From IMG/VR virus record IMGVR_UViG_3300037245_002282: a DNA stretch of 34,050 nucleotides, one strand, 5' to 3'. Both the position numbers and the translations under genes were made by a program. The notes beneath the pieces are model-generated. The model was not told the DNA's origin. It saw only the letters and a program-made list of their open reading frames with translations, and ran no database searches. The DNA comes from an uncultured virus (IMG/VR IMGVR_UViG_3300037245_002282). Its lineage: Duplodnaviria > Heunggongvirae > Uroviricota > Caudoviricetes. Below are positions 6,797-33,228 of the stretch, piece by piece. Numbering within the stretch: the first letter of the stretch is position 1; the number at the start of each line of letters is the position of its first letter.

Positions 6797-7066
6797 TCAT
6801 TTATTCTTAAAATCACGTATCCGTATTTGTCCTTTAAAAATATATACATCATACTTACTTGTTTGCAAAATCTCTCTAACAAATAATATTGGTTTATCTT
6901 TCGGTAGTATAGGTTTAAGCATTTTAACTTGATTACAATCACCCTTTAATACCTGACCGTACGAACTATAAACATTTATCTTCGAAGGATACGCAGTATG
7001 CCATGCACTATCAAACAACCTGATTAAAACTCCATTATCATCCGCCCATAATCCATCAAGTATCAT
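6797..7066 (-). CDS. GLW-family paralog, hypothetical
   Basis: N-terminus ILDGLWADDNGVLIRLFD; overlaps the upstream gene. Confidence 0.7.
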   Translation of the reverse strand: MILDGLWADDNGVLIRLFDSAWHTAYPSKINVYSSYGQVLKGDCNQVKMLKPILPKDKPILFVREILQTSKYDVYIFKGQIRIRDFKNK

Positions 7067-9629: not shown

Positions 9630-10526
9630 TCACAAATTATCAGCAATGTTCTGAAGTGTCTGTTTCGAAGCAGCTTCCAAATCAACAGCTTTATCCCACA
9701 GCGCGTGATCTACATGAGCTTCCACTGCGTCATCAACCACTTGCTCAAGCACTGAAGGCTGCAAGGCATCTAGTTCCCATGAAGCATCTCCGTACTGATC
9801 GGCATAAACTTCAAATCTTGAGTCAGTCTGTTTAGCGGGATTCTCCGGGGGATTGTATAATTTGATCTGAGGCATATTAAGAGCTATACGATCCACTACA
9901 ATCGGAATATCCTCTTCAGCCTCTTCCCGGTATCCAAGGAACAAGTTCATCCTGTCTTCAACATCTCGTGTCATATCCATCCCAGACGGATCGTGGTCTC
10001 CCAAATAAATCAGATGTAAATACTTCCCTTCGAAATGTGCTGCCTCAAATCTCTTCCCGGCTTCGTACAATGCACTCTGACTTGAATATCCACGATTAGC
10101 CATAAAGATTACATCCCACTTCGAACAGACCGGCTGAATGATATTTGATACGGCGTCTTTTTCACACCACACCTCAACATATTCATTTTGATACTTCCAG
10201 CGACTTTCATAATATCCATTGACTGCTGCATCAAGAATATGTTTCGGATTTCTCCAATGAGTATTCTCTTTAGGATTTCTCACCCTGTCCTCAATCATAT
10301 TCCAGTCAATGAATCCGGCCAACCTGCCCTTATTCACAACATTCCCGATCTTCTTATATTCCCTTTGATTATTCGGGATATGATCTCCCGCTACCAACTG
10401 ATAATACAATTGTCTCAATGTCAGTTTATATCCTTGACTTCTATAATCCTCAAGGATATCATTTATGATATCAATCAATTCCATAGATCTAGCAGACGGT
10501 CGCCATGGTGTAAACTCTTCTTTCAT
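9630..10526 (-). CDS. TOPRIM-domain protein of the Topo VI-A/Spo11/DUF2399-like group
   Basis: TLRQLYYQLV (winged-helix Tyr region), VEVWCEKDA (Glu) and YLGDHDPSG (DxD). Confidence 0.75.
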   Translation of the reverse strand: MKEEFTPWRPSARSMELIDIINDILEDYRSQGYKLTLRQLYYQLVAGDHIPNNQREYKKIGNVVNKGRLAGFIDWNMIEDRVRNPKENTHWRNPKHILDAAVNGYYESRWKYQNEYVEVWCEKDAVSNIIQPVCSKWDVIFMANRGYSSQSALYEAGKRFEAAHFEGKYLHLIYLGDHDPSGMDMTRDVEDRMNLFLGYREEAEEDIPIVVDRIALNMPQIKLYNPPENPAKQTDSRFEVYADQYGDASWELDALQPSVLEQVVDDAVEAHVDHALWDKAVDLEAASKQTLQNIADNL

Positions 10527-10924
10527 ATTAACCCCTTCATAAAACGTTCCTTATATTTCACTTGAGCAGCTTTAATTTCTTCTATAGTAACACCAGAAGG
10601 TCTATACATCTCAAGTTGTTGATCAGACATACCTATTGACGCTGGAATAGACATACCTGCATAAAAGGGTGGATTATATTGATACGCTATCTTGGGAATA
10701 ATAAGCACATCAGCTACAGATGTAAGTGGAGTAACCGACGACTCATTTTGTAATTGAATAATAAACGTCTGCTTAGGTATTACAGAATATAACTTTATCC
10801 CGCTAAGACAGCCTGTAAAATTGCCTTTAAGTATTTTAATAGAACAACTGAGGTTTGCTGTTCCGCGATTATGCAGTCTAAATAACATCGTACTATCGTT
10901 ATCCCGCCATAAACCATCTAACAT
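10523..10924 (-). CDS. GLW-family paralog, hypothetical
   Basis: MLDGLWRDNDSTMLFRL...ILKG...LYSVIPK. Confidence 0.75.
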   Translation of the reverse strand: MLDGLWRDNDSTMLFRLHNRGTANLSCSIKILKGNFTGCLSGIKLYSVIPKQTFIIQLQNESSVTPLTSVADVLIIPKIAYQYNPPFYAGMSIPASIGMSDQQLEMYRPSGVTIEEIKAAQVKYKERFMKGLI

Positions 10925-10943
10925 ATTATCCCTCTACTTACAA

Positions 10944-11363
10944 TTATCGTACAGCATCCACACTTCTAACCCCATTCCATATCAGAAGACGTGGCGGTGT
11001 ACTTATATAATGAATATTCGCATACTCGGCTATTAACTCTTTTCGTTTTATAGCGTTCCACGCATGATAACGTAAGCCGATAGCTTCCTTGTTATACCGG
11101 TTTACGTAAAGCTTAACGGCATCGGGTACTATCAATTCAGCATCTGGATAACAACCTACATGTATTTTTTCTGAGATCCAACCCATATACGTCGTCCTAA
11201 CATAATAATCGCCTTTCTGAACTTGAAAATATAACTTGGTACCTATGACCGGTCGTTTAAATATTATACTATTACAGCTCCTAATCTCAACCAGACATGG
11301 AGCTGTTAAAAATGATGTTGGAAATATGAGGGATAACAGTCCCTCTCTAGGTTTTTGGTTCAT
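10944..11363 (-). CDS. Hypothetical protein
   Basis: 139-aa ORF filling the gap in the minus-strand operon. Confidence 0.55.
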   Translation of the reverse strand: MNQKPREGLLSLIFPTSFLTAPCLVEIRSCNSIIFKRPVIGTKLYFQVQKGDYYVRTTYMGWISEKIHVGCYPDAELIVPDAVKLYVNRYNKEAIGLRYHAWNAIKRKELIAEYANIHYISTPPRLLIWNGVRSVDAVR

Positions 11364-11829
11364 TTATATCCCACGCTTTTATTGGAAATAGAAGATTCCA
11401 TGTCCTATACCATATACTGCCTCTTGCAGTTCTTCTAGTTTTAAATAACTCAACAGACATCGGTTCAGGTACAAGCGGTGTAGGATGTTTAAGGTCCAAT
11501 AATAATTCGTTAGCTAGATCTTGACGCCAATCCGTATAAGGTATTCCCATGAAATTTTTATTAAAATCAGGTATAACAATCGGTGGCAGTAATATAATAA
11601 CCTTAGCTACTGATGTCTTCTGAGTCAGGGGAAACCATTCCTGTAATTTAATATCATAATCCTTTCTCGGCATTACTGAGTATAATTTCAACCCATCAGT
11701 ATACAGATCAATACTGCCTTTAAGTATCGTAAGATGACTCCTAGTTTCTGACTCACTTATCGGCGCAACCTCACGAATCCGAACAAGCAGCGTCTTATCC
11801 TCATTGCGCCATAACCCGGCTACTGACAT
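11347..11829 (-). CDS. GLW-family paralog, hypothetical
   Basis: MSVAGLWRNEDKTLLVRI...ILKG...LYSVMPRKDY. Confidence 0.75.
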   Translation of the reverse strand: MSVAGLWRNEDKTLLVRIREVAPISESETRSHLTILKGSIDLYTDGLKLYSVMPRKDYDIKLQEWFPLTQKTSVAKVIILLPPIVIPDFNKNFMGIPYTDWRQDLANELLLDLKHPTPLVPEPMSVELFKTRRTARGSIWYRTWNLLFPIKAWDINEPKT

Positions 11830-12242
11830 TCCATAGCTCCTTTAAACTCTTCCATAGCTCCTTTAAACTTTTCCATAGTAACTCCCGCGGGTCTATACCT
11901 ATCAAGCTCTTTATCAGACATACCAACCATAAGCGCCTGTGTTAACATTGGTGAATACCTTGGATTTACGAACTTCGACTCTGGTATTTCAACTACCTGT
12001 AATAAGAACTCGCGTCCCATAGACTTAAAAGTTTTTACTGTAATCTTAAAATCCCTCTTAGGTATTACTGATATTAGTATAGGTATTCGATAGGATATAT
12101 TAAGATCACGCGAATCACCTTTAAGTACATCAGCATGGCAACCATATACAGGAAATAATCCTTTATCATTCAATTGCACACCGGCATGAATCCTGATAAG
12201 TAAATCCTCTGTTTCATCGCGCCATAATCCTTCTACTGACAT
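11820..12242 (-). CDS. GLW-family paralog, hypothetical
   Basis: MSVEGLWRDETEDLLIRI...VLKG...SVIPKRDF. Confidence 0.75.
   Translation of the reverse strand: MSVEGLWRDETEDLLIRIHAGVQLNDKGLFPVYGCHADVLKGDSRDLNISYRIPILISVIPKRDFKITVKTFKSMGREFLLQVVEIPESKFVNPRYSPMLTQALMVGMSDKELDRYRPAGVTMEKFKGAMEEFKGAMECQ
11829..11878. repeat. 21-bp tandem repeat (2.4 copies) spanning a gene end and RBS
   Basis: ttccatagctcctttaaact(c/t) twice, then ttccatag; encodes MEKFKGA-MEEFKGA-ME. Confidence 0.9.
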
Positions 12243-12532
12243 TGCACACCAGCCTTATATGCATTAGGATCATAACGCCAATTAACCCAATCATCCACAA
12301 TAGGAACAATAAGTACTTCAGCTACAGATGAGAATCTACCGACGAGAAACCAATTTTGTAATCGGATATTAAAATCCTTCTTAGGCATTACAGGGTATAA
12401 TTTCAAATTATCAAGATTCGGATGAGCATCTGTACTCTTAAGTATTTTAATAACACAGTTAGATGTAGAACCCATATCCCGCAGCCTGACAAGTATGGTA
12501 CTCTCTTCATTGCGCCATAAACCGTTCATCAC
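12233..12532 (-). CDS. GLW-family paralog, hypothetical
   Basis: MNGLWRNEESTILVRL...ILKS...LYPVMPKKDF. Confidence 0.75.
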   Translation of the reverse strand: MMNGLWRNEESTILVRLRDMGSTSNCVIKILKSTDAHPNLDNLKLYPVMPKKDFNIRLQNWFLVGRFSSVAEVLIVPIVDDWVNWRYDPNAYKAGVQCQ

Positions 12533-12990: not shown

Positions 12991-13026
12991 TATATAATAA
13001 TCGGACATAAGGGAAAAACCTTACAA
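12991..13026 (-). promoter_or_regulatory. Sigma28-like promoter motif, copy 3
   Basis: Minus strand TTGTAAGGTTTTTCCCTTATGTC-CGATTATTATATA. Confidence 0.7.
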
Positions 13027-18048: not shown

Positions 18049-18362
18049 ATATCTGCTTCCAATAAATCTGTAGGTTTCATTAACTCCCACGCTTCGAGTG
18101 CAGTTTCCAGCATCTCTTCCTTAGTGACATGCTCTAAGTATTTCTTTATCTGATACTTCCCGCGATCAGGTATACTCATCGCTCTCCACTTATAATTATA
18201 TCCAAAGTTCTCTACCGGTTTCCATGTCCGCTTTTTCGGTTCACAGAGTCTCACCAAATATCTGTACACAGGCTTTTCACTACGTGACCACGTGATTGTC
18301 ACAACAACCTCAATCTTTACCCTTGAACCGTCTTCTCTTTTAAATATCTTTTCATGTAGCAT
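18045..18362 (-). CDS. Hypothetical protein, paralog of 19001..19315
   Basis: Shared HEKIFKREDGSRVK, LCEP, WKPVE and VTxxEML. Confidence 0.75.
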   Translation of the reverse strand: MLHEKIFKREDGSRVKIEVVVTITWSRSEKPVYRYLVRLCEPKKRTWKPVENFGYNYKWRAMSIPDRGKYQIKKYLEHVTKEEMLETALEAWELMKPTDLLEADI

Positions 18363-19000: not shown

Positions 19001-19315
19001 CTATCGCCGGGAAGTAAACAACATATCCGGCTTCATCTTCTCCCACAGCTCCAACCCTGTCTGTAGCATCTCATCCTCGGTCACATACTTTAGAAATATC
19101 CATATCTTATAGCTTGGTCGTTTTTTAACACTTATAGCTTTCCAGTGATGATCGAACAGTTCTACCGGTTTCCATTTTACCTTTCCCGGTTCGCATAAAC
19201 ACACATCATACAGGTATACGGGTGATTGACTATTATCTCCCAGAGCCATAACGATCTCTACCTTGAGCTTTACTCTTGAACCGTCTTCCCGTTTAAATAT
19301 CTTTTCGTGTCGCAT
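19001..19315 (-). CDS. Hypothetical protein, paralog of 18045..18362
   Basis: See paralog; GGGAG RBS. Confidence 0.75.
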   Translation of the reverse strand: MRHEKIFKREDGSRVKLKVEIVMALGDNSQSPVYLYDVCLCEPGKVKWKPVELFDHHWKAISVKKRPSYKIWIFLKYVTEDEMLQTGLELWEKMKPDMLFTSRR

Positions 19316-23405: not shown

Positions 23406-23882
23406 TTACTCGCTTGAGTTCCCATCAATTATCTCCTTTGAATTAGTTATCGGTAAAATCCTCCCGATTGCGTTTTTAAGAGATTCCGTATCACTAGCAT
23501 CCTGACCTTCGGTTCTACCTTCCAACTCTATACCATTTACACGTACAGTAGTTCCACTTACATAAAAACCGTTAACCAGTTGAATTAACGTAGATCTGAT
23601 ATCCTCTGAAGTTGTGCCTTTCCCGTAGGTTTTCTCAATCTTATCACTGGCATCAATCACGAATACATCACCATCTTTCTTTATGAATCCGTCTTTATAC
23701 AGTTTGGATACAAGAGTCTGCAACAAAATCGCTTTCGAAGCGCTATTGATCTTTCGTTGACGTATCGGCTTCTCGTCCGGTCCATATAGTTTCCTTTGAA
23801 TCTTATGTCCATTCTCAGCCTGAAGCTGTCTACGATGAATCGCATCAAGTTCAGCTTTAGATATTCTATTACCCAATTTCAT
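23406..23882 (-). CDS. Hypothetical protein
   Basis: ~158 aa, GGGGGA RBS. Confidence 0.65.
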   Translation of the reverse strand: MKLGNRISKAELDAIHRRQLQAENGHKIQRKLYGPDEKPIRQRKINSASKAILLQTLVSKLYKDGFIKKDGDVFVIDASDKIEKTYGKGTTSEDIRSTLIQLVNGFYVSGTTVRVNGIELEGRTEGQDASDTESLKNAIGRILPITNSKEIIDGNSSE

Positions 23883-23911
23883 CTTCAATCCCCCTGATCA
23901 TATTTTCAAGA

Positions 23912-24235
23912 TCATCTACCTATCCGTTTCAACCCGGTCTTAAATGGGTTACCCTCAACAGGCATGGTAGGAGCCTCCGCGTGAATCACTTCCATACGCT
24001 CAGGATTCACACCATCTTCAATCAACAGCAGTCCGCGAAACTTATTCACAGTAATCTCTTTAGTCAATTTCTGACCCATCACTTTCTGACAGGCATCGCT
24101 CAAATGTCTTCGAGCTACAGTACCTATTATAATACCTGTAGACGTGTGACCTATAGCGGTTATCTCATCGAGTTTCGTATCCAGATATGCAATCAGATCC
24201 ATACCATCAGTTATAATTCTTCCTTCTAACAGCAT
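23912..24235 (-). CDS. Hypothetical protein
   Basis: 107 aa, poly-G RBS, first gene after a sigma28-like motif. Confidence 0.7.
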   Translation of the reverse strand: MLLEGRIITDGMDLIAYLDTKLDEITAIGHTSTGIIIGTVARRHLSDACQKVMGQKLTKEITVNKFRGLLLIEDGVNPERMEVIHAEAPTMPVEGNPFKTGLKRIGR

Positions 24236-24258
24236 TACTGCCCCCCCTGTTCTTCACC

Positions 24259-24293
24259 TATAAATAATCGGGATATTCATAAAAACCTTACAG
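24259..24293 (-). promoter_or_regulatory. Sigma28-like promoter motif, copy 4
   Basis: Minus strand CTGTAAGGTTTTTATGAATATCC-CGATTATTTATA. Confidence 0.7.
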
Positions 24294-24305
24294 ACATAAA
24301 AGATC

Positions 24306-24445
24306 AAAGAGGGAGGAACACCATACGTTACCATATGGCATTTCCCGCAAAACCAAATCGCCAGTCGATCGTTCGCTACCCAATGTTCTGCTCTTTTCAT
24401 TACACCAAATAGGGGTTCTGCGGTCCGGCACTCCCGCCCTGACCA
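24306..24445 (-). ncRNA. Candidate structured RNA element
   Basis: Outer stem AAAGAG..GAACA/TGTTC..CTCTTT; hairpin CCATATG-GTAA-CGTATGG (GNRA loop); GGTC..GACC hairpin upstream. Confidence 0.4.
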
Positions 24446-24462
24446 AAATATTAAAATCTAAA

Positions 24463-24546
24463 ATGTAGAGAATGAACGATTCTTAAGGAGGTTTGCCTGT
24501 TGAACCGCAATGCGAATCAAATATCAGAACCGCCCATTCCCTACAT
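24463..24546 (-). ncRNA. Candidate small RNA with anti-Shine-Dalgarno loop
   Basis: 21-bp uninterrupted stem with 4 G-U pairs on the minus strand; starts a few nt after promoter copy 5; unpaired GCAAACCTCCTT. Confidence 0.6.
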
Positions 24547-24549
24547 ACC

Positions 24550-24582
24550 TTAATAATCGTAGTATACACCGAAACCTTACAA
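24550..24582 (-). promoter_or_regulatory. Sigma28-like promoter motif, copy 5
   Basis: Minus strand TTGTAAGGTTTCGGTGTATACTA-CGATTATTAA; no ORF follows. Confidence 0.7.
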
Positions 24583-25107
24583 ATTAAGTACCTCATCAAA
24601 CGGATAAATGTATTCTATAGCTATATTCACAGGCTCGGTTAAATTACGCTGTGCTTCATATACTTTTCCATTTCTATAAATCATAGCGTGATTAACACTT
24701 CCACCGCCTACAGAAGATCTCGAATAATCATGAAACGGACAAACGTGACCCGTAATACTTCTGACATCTAACGTATTCACTAAAACTAAATCAAACTTGA
24801 TCCCAAACACAACATAGGCAATATTCATAGCTAGAATTACTATATCATCACAGTCACCATAACCACGTTCAACAGTGGTTCTAGGACTGGACCAAACATC
24901 AATTACTTCAACAGCATATCTCACAAATGTCCATATCCAAGGAACCACATAATCCAATGCTTTAACTGTATCGAAATTACCATAATACAAATTATGATTG
25001 CTTGCATATTCGGAATATACAATGTCTTTCCAATCACCATCCCATAATAGACCCTTACAGCCTAAGAAACCCCAAATTGCTATAAAAATTATCAATAACT
25101 TTTTCAT
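24577..25107 (-). CDS. Lipoprotein with transglutaminase-like cysteine peptidase domain
   Basis: MKKLLIIFIAIWGFLGC lipobox; WSSPRTTVERGYGDCDD and NHAMI. Confidence 0.78.
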   Translation of the reverse strand: MKKLLIIFIAIWGFLGCKGLLWDGDWKDIVYSEYASNHNLYYGNFDTVKALDYVVPWIWTFVRYAVEVIDVWSSPRTTVERGYGDCDDIVILAMNIAYVVFGIKFDLVLVNTLDVRSITGHVCPFHDYSRSSVGGGSVNHAMIYRNGKVYEAQRNLTEPVNIAIEYIYPFDEVLNL

Positions 25108-25117
25108 AGATCCCCCT

Positions 25118-25408
25118 TTATGAGCGCGGACTATAGTCATCATTATACATCGGTCCAAGTTCCAGCTCATCCCGATCCTCTGCTTTCTCTACAGCTTCAC
25201 GTACTGCACGCTCTCCATAATTTCTTAAACTCCTGATATCTTTCAGATTGTCCAGTGTAAACATCCACGGAGTCCCCGGACCACCCGGCTGGAAACCACA
25301 ACCATATTTCAAAGCATAATGCTTCAAAGTATCCTGCTTAACTCCCAACACTCGGGCACCGGACTTCGTAGTGTAAATCTTCACAGGACCTTCATTTGTG
25401 TTTTCCAT
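25118..25408 (-). CDS. MerR/excisionase-like HTH DNA-binding protein
   Basis: IYTTKSGARVLGVKQDTLKHYA...WMFTLDNL. Confidence 0.7.
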   Translation of the reverse strand: MENTNEGPVKIYTTKSGARVLGVKQDTLKHYALKYGCGFQPGGPGTPWMFTLDNLKDIRSLRNYGERAVREAVEKAEDRDELELGPMYNDDYSPRS

Positions 25409-29062: not shown

Positions 29063-29133
29063 AAGCAAACCTCCATGACTTTCGTCAGGTCACGGTACTA
29101 GTTCTATCTAATACCGTCCCCCGACGCCTGCGC

Positions 29134-29979: not shown

Positions 29980-30065
29980 TTTAAAACCTCCATGTGAGGA
30001 TGATTTAATATAGTTGATCATCCCCCTCCCGGTCCTCGTTAGAAGGCCGGGTAGGTGAGTAACAA

Positions 30066-31421: not shown

Positions 31422-31505
31422 GCAAACCTCCATGCATGGAACGGATTGGATTTTTTAATAACCGTTCCCCTCTGTGCTCTCATATGAAAGCGCAGTAGGT
31501 AAAAG

Positions 31506-32040: not shown

Positions 32041-32060
32041 CCTTCCCTTTCTATACTTTA

Positions 32061-32089
32061 ATTATATCACGTTAGCGGGATTATGTCAA
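32061..32089 (-). promoter_or_regulatory. Perfect sigma70 consensus promoter
   Basis: TTGACA-taatcccgctaacgtga (17 nt)-TATAAT. Confidence 0.9.
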
Positions 32090-32127
32090 CTAATTGATTT
32101 TCGGGAGATAATGTGTTATTCAGTTGA

Positions 32128-32631: not shown

Positions 32632-32695
32632 TGCAAACCTCCTTGCAAACTTCAAACATTGATCATCCGCAAATCGATAACTTTCGCCTTACCTA

Positions 32696-32724
32696 ACTAT
32701 ATCACGTTAGCGGGATAATGTCAA
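32696..32724 (-). promoter_or_regulatory. Sigma70 promoter, duplicate of 32061..32089
   Basis: TTGACA-ttatcccgctaacgtga (17 nt)-TATAGT. Confidence 0.85.
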
Positions 32725-32754
32725 CTAATCGATTTTCGAGAGATAGTTTAATAT

Positions 32755-33228
32755 TTAGAAACGTATTTTACAGTGACAACTGGTACATAGCCAGATCACA
32801 TCAAGCGGATAATAATACCCTCTATGATGGTGACCCTCAATCTTACATGCCGTGACACCGCATTTAGAACATTTAGTAGGTTTTATTATACGGCCTTTCC
32901 TCACAGCATAATTTAGTTTATTTCTTGCACTTACGCCGTCTTTATTATTAAACGAATACTCTTTATGATATTGTCTCTCACGTTCAGCATATCCAGGATT
33001 AAGTCTAAGGCGTTTCGCTGACTCCCGAGCCACTTCAGCCGCATGATCAGGATCATTAGCTTTCCATACCTTTTGGCGTTCTGACATCAGCGCTCGATAC
33101 TCAGGATCATTAGCATATTTATCATTATGCCACTTAAGATTATCGGCCCTGACCTTCTCTTTATTCTTTTCCTTCCAGCGTTTCTGCGCTAGTCGCTTAC
33201 TCTCTATTCTCTGTTCTTCTGTTTTCAT
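32755..33228 (-). CDS. HNH-family zinc-binding protein, probably leaderless
   Basis: Basic helical N-terminus; CSKC...IEGHH..Y..PLDVIWLCTSCH. Confidence 0.75.
   Translation of the reverse strand: MKTEEQRIESKRLAQKRWKEKNKEKVRADNLKWHNDKYANDPEYRALMSERQKVWKANDPDHAAEVARESAKRLRLNPGYAERERQYHKEYSFNNKDGVSARNKLNYAVRKGRIIKPTKCSKCGVTACKIEGHHHRGYYYPLDVIWLCTSCHCKIRF

Follow-up and report, generated by a model that had tools for sequence, protein, structure and literature searches.

The temporal programmes of phages are generally attributed to transcription factors and sigma factors, together with a small number of RNA-binding proteins, and the phage antisense RNAs known to us mostly control single genes in temperate phages. 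In phage T4, RegA is a translational repressor and RegB is an endoribonuclease that cuts GGAG in early Shine-Dalgarno (SD) sequences. The C-rich-loop sRNAs of Firmicutes (RsaE/RoxS and the hairpins of RNAIII) carry unpaired C-rich loops on stable stems, which pair with the G-rich SDs of several mRNAs, and the lambda PR'-tR' 6S RNA and the nut/put sites are short structured RNAs located right after a phage promoter and before the controlled genes, with a U-rich tract. We know of no promoter-proximal phage leader RNA whose loop is complementary to the ribosome-binding sites (RBSs) of another gene class. Among described systems, the c4 antisense RNA of P1/P7 comes closest: it is a structured phage RNA whose loops pair with the ribosome-binding region of ant and block its translation (PMC12197685).

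The hairpin described here lies in a stretch of 34,050 nucleotides from an uncultured virus of the Caudoviricetes (IMG/VR record IMGVR_UViG_3300037245_002282), the whole of which is called the window. It is predicted to be a trans-acting anti-SD RNA repressing the phage's own early regulon, a reading to which we give a probability of about 0.5. It would resemble T4 RegA/RegB in the proposed post-transcriptional shut-off of many early phage mRNAs at their RBSs, with the difference that the T4 effectors are proteins and the proposed effector here is an RNA loop. With RsaE/RoxS and RNAIII it shares a C-rich loop on a stable stem set against several SDs, whereas those RNAs are host-encoded and have other sequences and structures, and no Rfam family matches the hairpin. 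With the lambda elements it shares the U-rich tract and, putatively, the promoter-proximal position, but the lambda leaders act in cis on RNA polymerase, while the loop of the hairpin complements RBSs of another gene class. The likeness to c4 lies in a loop directed against the RBS of a phage mRNA encoded elsewhere; c4 serves one operon (icd/ant) and immunity in temperate phages, whereas a single seed here matches three to eight early genes through a shared SD extension. In a non-exhaustive search of the full-text literature, no description was found of a phage sRNA aimed at an SD extension that early genes of the same phage have in common.

The only public sequencing run containing DNA of the window was a marine-sediment DNA metagenome, perhaps the sample of origin, and contigs encoding a protein identical to the product of the 107-aa gene of the window reached 96 kb. 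All long open reading frames of the window in the ORF list are on the minus strand, which is thus the gene strand. Pfam searches of the window returned a portal protein, a type IB topoisomerase, ThyX, a BCS1-like AAA protein, SSB, a MoxR-like AAA ATPase and a DUF2201/VWA protein. At about 27% identity, the portal is a distant relative of those of the Firmicute-infecting Herelleviridae. The region 23800-25300 had no blastn match among 50,697 phage records, and no tRNA or tmRNA was found in a scan of the whole window. A 65-nt repeat (32059-32123 and 32694-32758, 86% identical) precedes early genes, and within it lies a minus-strand promoter of sigma-70 type that is close to consensus (TTGACA-N17-TATAGT at 32724-32696). 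The coordinates of the features discussed below are collected in Table 1.

Table 1. Coordinates of the hairpin locus, the promoter-like motif and the predicted targets in the window, and of domain 2 in related phages.
Feature	Position	Strand	Evidence or remark
84-nt predicted hairpin RNA	24463..24546	-	21-bp stem (4 G-U), inner hairpin, open internal loop; fold and positional homologues in L002, L021, L022
Seed GCAAACCUCC in internal loop	24487..24496	-	9-mer CAAACCUCC invariant in 4/4 phages (alignment columns C91-C99)
U-rich tract (UUUAGAUUUUAAUAUUUU) after stem	24445..24462	-	read from sequence
Second conserved structured RNA (domain 2), ends in U-run	24298..24444	-	RNAalifold; hairpin and U-rich tract precede it in the window
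Promoter-like motif TAAGGTTT-N12-CGATTAT, directly 5' of hairpin	24553..24579	-	exact repeat copies
Second exact copy of the motif, before 107-aa gene 23912-24235	24264..24290	-	motif scan
Third exact copy of the motif	12997-13023	-	motif scan
2-mismatch copy of the motif	12560-12586	gene strand	motif scan
Predicted target 1: RBS AAGGAGGTTTGC, 167-aa gene, ATG 2 nt downstream	32633..32644	-	12 contiguous Watson-Crick pairs; -21.2 kcal/mol, rank 1
Predicted target 2: RBS GGAGGTTTGC, MoxR-like AAA ATPase (327 aa)	31422..31431	-	duplex energy -19.7, rank 5
Predicted target 3: RBS GGAGGTTTGC, DUF2201/VWA protein (392 aa)	29065..29074	-	duplex energy -20.7, rank 3
Weaker predicted target: RBS GGAGGTTT, 281-aa gene	29984..29991	-	8-nt match
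Domain 2 homologue, L002	2776-2935
Domain 2 homologue, L015	632-790
Domain 2 homologue, L021	3808-3965
Domain 2 homologue, L022	3772-3955

In the predicted minus-strand fold, the arms ATGTAGGGAATGGGCGGTTCT and AGAATCGTTCATTCTCTACAT form 21 consecutive pairs, four of them G-U, which enclose an inner hairpin (UUGA.UCGC-AUU-GCGG.UCAA) and a largely unpaired stretch, CAGGCAAACCUCCUUA, so that every structural element described in the sequence-only reading of this locus was recovered. The minimum free energy is -34.9 kcal/mol (z -5.61), a stability equalled in none of 200 shuffles, and the plus strand reaches just -22.7 kcal/mol, an asymmetry that favours the placement of the RNA on the minus strand made in that reading. 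The loop is accessible, with a mean unpaired probability of the 9-mer seed of 0.70 in the window and of 0.62-0.74 across the four phages compared below. The U-rich tract after the stem is a possible 3' end or leaky terminator; a terminator scan of 24000-25300 returned no terminator-like site and did not call the tract. The hairpin differs from a canonical intrinsic terminator (G+C-rich stem, loop of 3-8 nt, at least 5 U within 8 nt after the stem), with its loop of 42 nt and the tail UUUAGAUUUU. No Rfam 15 covariance model matched anywhere in the window at gathering thresholds, and at E values up to 10 nothing meaningful was found in 24100-24700, the only match on the hairpin being mir-2513 (15.6 bits against 89, E 4.9).

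The hairpin follows a repeated promoter-like motif, which had been reported from the sequence and of which three exact minus-strand copies were confirmed. With up to three mismatches, TAAGGTTT-N12-CGATTAT had 7 matches in the window against 2.03 +/- 1.51 expected, and 7 was reached in none of 100 shuffles. Behind the other copies, which are on the gene strand, a gene starts after about 20-30 nt, and these genes use G-rich RBSs without GGAGGT, none of which contains GGAGGTTTG; this agrees with the earlier observation that genes behind the motif have different RBSs. A search for sigma-70 region 2 (Sigma70_r2) in three related records (G001-G003) gave no match.

The complement of the loop seed, GGAGGTTTGC, had three exact minus-strand matches (29065-29074, 31422-31431 and 32633-32642) and one on the plus strand (24487-24496), which is the hairpin itself. 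With at most one mismatch there were 6 matches against 1.26 +/- 1.10 expected, and 6 was reached in none of 100 shuffles. An ATG follows each of the three minus-strand copies after 1-3 nt and opens a frame of 327 aa (MoxR-like AAA), 392 aa (DUF2201/VWA) or 167 aa. The exact complements at the MoxR and VWA RBSs, as well as the 12-nt and 8-nt matches that had been pointed out at two further genes, were therefore all found again, and the orthologues in L021 and L022 of the 281-aa gene, which has only the 8-nt match in the window, have the full GGAGGTTTG as their RBS.

In the duplex ranking, which covered the window, the contig of L002, G003 and G004, the three targets in the window had energies of -19.7 to -21.2, against a mean of -5.9 (sd 2.8) over all segments scored, and all 8 targets in G004 were within the 11 best sites. 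Equally good scores were reached by some sites that are not RBSs (those ranked 2 and 4 in the window and 1-3 in G003); these are chance sites inside genes. Since any loop with CCUCC ranks SD sequences highly, only the extension of 4-5 nt (CAAA) is informative, and the chance of a match of the loop extension is estimated at roughly 1 in 50 to 1 in 250. The claim that the match goes beyond the generic SD core held up. At RBS-like sites GGAGG is followed by TTTG more often than by any other 4-mer in all five stretches counted (3/16, 3/24, 8/22, 3/16 and 2/14).

Relatives were found through the proteins flanking the hairpin, with identities in the 107-aa protein of 85% (L002), 58% (L021) and 50% (L022). 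In all three relatives covering the region, a hairpin occupies the equivalent position, after the homologue of the 96-aa gene (window 25118-25408) and a promoter-like motif, with predicted folds of -33.4 kcal/mol (z -3.9) in L002, -35.0 kcal/mol (z -4.4) in L021 and -32.3 kcal/mol (z -5.2) in L022. The motif before the hairpin is the same in L002 as in the window, and L022 has a different, internally repeated motif (TAGGAAAA-N13-CCATWAT) at two equivalent places; in all four phages the hairpin begins about 6-9 nt from the motif. The long stems have 19-21 bp, and those of L021 and L022 are unalignable with the window in sequence, while the loop 9-mer CAAACCTCC is unchanged in all four phages and anchors the alignment. 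The fold advantage of the gene strand is about 12 kcal/mol in the window and L002 (-33.2 vs -21.8 in L002), 2.8 in L021 and 0.3 in L022.

In each of the three relatives an RBS and a gene lie 10-30 nt downstream of the hairpin. The gene encodes an M23 peptidase in L002, an SLT transglycosylase in L022 and a 115-aa predicted membrane protein in L021 (hydrophobic N-terminus judged by eye, no Pfam match), and L021 has U8 right after the stem, in the same place as the U-rich tract of the window. Unlike these relatives, the window has no gene behind the hairpin. The free-standing sRNA proposed from the window sequence is thus a candidate in the window, where the hairpin is alone, and not in L002, L021 and L022, where it is the 5' leader of a protein gene. 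Pairing in cis of the loop with the SD of the following gene was also considered (by eye, some 7 bp for L002 and for L021 but some 4 bp for L022; no gene in the window) and was judged weaker than pairing in trans. The slot beside the hairpin is a hot spot of gene replacement, in which the envelope-related gene differs from phage to phage. In L002 (2066-2758), L021 (3455-3802) and L022 (3128-3763) this gene is downstream of the hairpin; the slot gene of the window, upstream of the hairpin (24577-25170, minus strand), encodes a 197-aa protein with no Pfam match.

From a MAFFT alignment of the window and L002, RNAalifold derived another, weak consensus (14 pairs, 0 compensatory) in which the long stem was absent, because the 3' arms were out of register in the alignment. 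A covariance model built from the window hairpin as a single sequence scored 113.8 bits on the window, 31.9 on its reverse strand and 26.9 (E 1e-4) on the contig of L002; it missed the hairpins of L021 and L022 and found no extra copies. With the model finding the hairpin in two of the four phages, it is position and the individual folds that speak for structural homology in the distant pair. Among viral contigs, an exact 21-mer spanning promoter and stem occurred only in the contig of the window itself and in that of L002, and the exact 16-mer loop motif occurred in 8 stretches, 6 of which are unrelated (coding regions or ordinary RBS complements).

A metagenome scan with the 107-aa neighbour protein gave five loci, of which L014-L016 are true relatives that are too short to include the hairpin position, and L017 and L018 were rejected as relatives, being weak partial matches with nothing similar upstream. 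A scan with the 96-aa neighbour protein returned the same four phages and two weak matches (L046, L047), which were left out of the comparison. No relatives were found in the genome contig scan, and the hairpin region is absent from the nearest related record, G001 (24 kb).

The loop 9-mer and the extended SD GGAGGUUUG of early genes are co-conserved in all four phages. Counted over each entire record, GGAGGTTTG has 3 copies on the gene strand of the window (34 kb), 3 in G002 (53 kb), 5 in G003 (91 kb) and 8 in G004 (17.7 kb), with 1 copy on the other strand in each case, and the reversed-pattern control gave 0-1. All 19 gene-strand copies are located 1-4 nt before an ATG and in the early block, upstream of the hairpin in the order of transcription, and in every phage the sole copy on the other strand is the hairpin loop. 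Each of the 19 targets forms 9-12 contiguous Watson-Crick pairs with the loop of its own phage. The base after the 9-mer is able to pair in 11/11 targets that face a loop G (6 C, 5 U) and in 4/8 that face a loop A. The base 5' of GGAGG does not vary with the loop: the loops of the window and L002 expect A, yet T is present in 3/6 targets. Early RBSs without the motif occur as well, among them the orthologous RBSs of the VWA gene (GGAGGTTCG) and of the 281-aa gene (GGAGGTGTG) in L002 and a deviating orthologous RBS (GGAGGTTTT) in the window.

As an outgroup set, 80 loci were kept from a scan for VWA homologues, 3 from this clade and 77 others. Both the loop motif and the repeated RBS were present in 3/3 clade loci, and the 77 other loci with a VWA gene had neither CAAACCTCC on the gene strand nor a repeated GGAGGTTTG RBS. 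The four phages form one clade, so that the co-occurrence counts as one maintained evolutionary event and not as four. No compensatory change between seed and target was seen across the four phages, both being invariant, and because neither ever varies the evidence is co-conservation and not covariation (n=4). The seed-target covariation suggested as a check on the sequence-only reading thus came out as co-conservation: seed and target were conserved together in 4/4 phages while the stems turned over, and compensatory change was absent. Overall, the interpretation given in that reading is partly supported.

The most serious alternative, though an unlikely one, is that the hairpin is a cis-acting leader, working as an attenuator or leaky terminator, an antitermination site or a stabiliser of the 5' end, with a loop that is a site for a phage protein or RNA polymerase and matches the RBSs by coincidence. 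Stems that protect the 5' ends of mRNAs and promoter-proximal terminators with antitermination are established mechanisms, and the short distance to the promoter-like motif in all four phages, the RBS and gene that follow in 3/3 relatives and the U-rich tract after the stem (U8 in L021) are all in keeping with such a role. Left unexplained, however, is why in 4/4 phages the invariant loop should complement exactly the extended RBS that is most frequent among early genes, with both missing in 77/77 outgroups. The window also keeps the hairpin with no gene behind it, which argues for a function independent of that gene, and a region with no terminator-like site and a loop of 42 nt is far from a canonical terminator.

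It is quite improbable that the hairpin is a general SD sponge or host shut-off RNA, whose loop would mimic the anti-SD tail of 16S rRNA and titrate strong SDs of host and phage. The CCUCC core, as well as ACCUCCUUA in the loops of the window and L002, looks like the canonical 16S rRNA 3' end, and many GGAGG RBSs without TTTG score well in the duplex ranking, such as GGAGGTGTGCC at -21.7 in the contig of L002. The part that does not vary is, however, CAAA-CCUCC, and the 16S-like CCUCCUUA becomes CCUCCAAG in L021 and L022.

A DNA-level element, such as an origin, a hairpin for single-strand initiation or an asymmetric protein-binding site shared with early gene starts, would be compatible with a motif occurring in double-stranded DNA in both orientations and with a site at a module boundary where gene content varies among relatives; we consider it very improbable, as the fixed SD-like distance of 19/19 gene-strand copies from an ATG points to translation and the G-U pairs strongly favour a gene-strand RNA fold in the window and L002. 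Hardly tenable is an opposite-strand micro-ORF with the plus-strand AAGGAGG as its real RBS, which had been named as a reading that would overturn the sRNA: a TTG follows at a suitable distance in the window (8 nt, 17 codons, at about 24500-24553) and in L002 (7 nt, 7 codons), but the frame has 17, 7 and 1 codons in three phages and no start at usable spacing in L022 (0 codons), there is no peptide conservation, and the listed long ORFs of the region are all on the other strand.

Under the preferred reading, that of a trans-acting anti-SD RNA, a regulatory RNA would be made from the gene strand just downstream of a promoter-like motif that is not of the sigma-70 type, and the hairpin would mark the boundary between the early gene block and the genes that follow. 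The stem of 19-21 bp would hold the large loop open and present CAAACCUCC, that is the anti-SD core CCUCC with an extension of 4-5 nt, which would pair over 9-12 nt with the private extended SD GGAGGUUUG(C/U) of a subset of early genes (MoxR ATPase, VWA protein and others). The canonical 16S rRNA 3' end acts as the anti-SD and pairs over about 6 bp; taking it in place of the 3' end of the host, we infer that the loop would out-compete the rRNA tail and block 30S binding. Firing of the second promoter class would thereby end translation of the early regulon. The RNA would be made alone in the window, followed by the second structured RNA. In the relatives the hairpin is the leader of the mRNA of a cell-wall hydrolase or membrane protein and could act in that position or after processing; this leader position directly before a gene fits cis-acting roles too.

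A wider claim, which we hold somewhat more tentatively, is that this clade of phages of about 90-96 kb tags its early regulon with the private SD extension GGAGGUUUG, read by the one loop CAAACCUCC, which would out-compete the ribosome at all tagged genes and thus be the RNA equivalent of T4 RegA/RegB in timing the early-to-middle switch; domain 2 may be a second component. If this is true, one RNA seed and a regulon-wide SD tag would make a compact post-transcriptional off-switch for a whole gene class, SD extensions could serve as regulatory addresses, and the 9-nt tag with its hairpin would be a simple portable pair for synthetic translational control.

Domain 2 is about 150 nt long and is closed by a long helix; it also has a hairpin and a conserved GCCAGA/UCUGGC helix, and it ends in a U-run. 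RNAalifold on five sequences gave 32 consensus pairs, 14 of them with compensatory change, and no Rfam family matched it. ORFs of 48 and 52 aa over domain 2 are not conserved, the frame being switched in L002 relative to the window. Between the motif at 24579 and about position 24298, the window appears to contain a unit with no coding sequence, in which the hairpin and domain 2 are probably on the same transcript, and domain 2 may be the second component of the non-coding transcription unit of the hairpin. In L021 (3960-3995) the RBS of the 107-aa gene comes directly after the domain 2 U-run and leaves no space for the promoter-like motif that the window, L002 and L022 have there, so that domain 2 may be inside an operon there. 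In L015, a more distant relative, a tRNA-Tyr (GTA) lies at 545-630, immediately upstream of domain 2, which indicates that the locus collects RNA genes; Rfam searches of L014-L016 found only a tRNA and two sub-threshold matches to plastid families on the opposite strand of that tRNA.

Some further repeats were observed in the window. Short inverted repeats (such as GGAACGG...CCGTTCC) lie just 5' of early-gene GGAGGTTTG RBSs on the minus strand (about 31440-31470 and 29090-29125, by eye), with similar ones in the relatives (by eye), and may be processing or attenuation sites. Two gene starts (18307-18362 and 19260-19315) share 56 nt at 86% identity, which suggests a local duplication. Small paralogous genes are arranged in tandem at 10523-12532 on the minus strand, and also at 7056-7066 and 8288 (repeat families D1-D3, D5, D9 and D10); they have no Pfam match, and several share a similar N-terminal GLWR-like motif.
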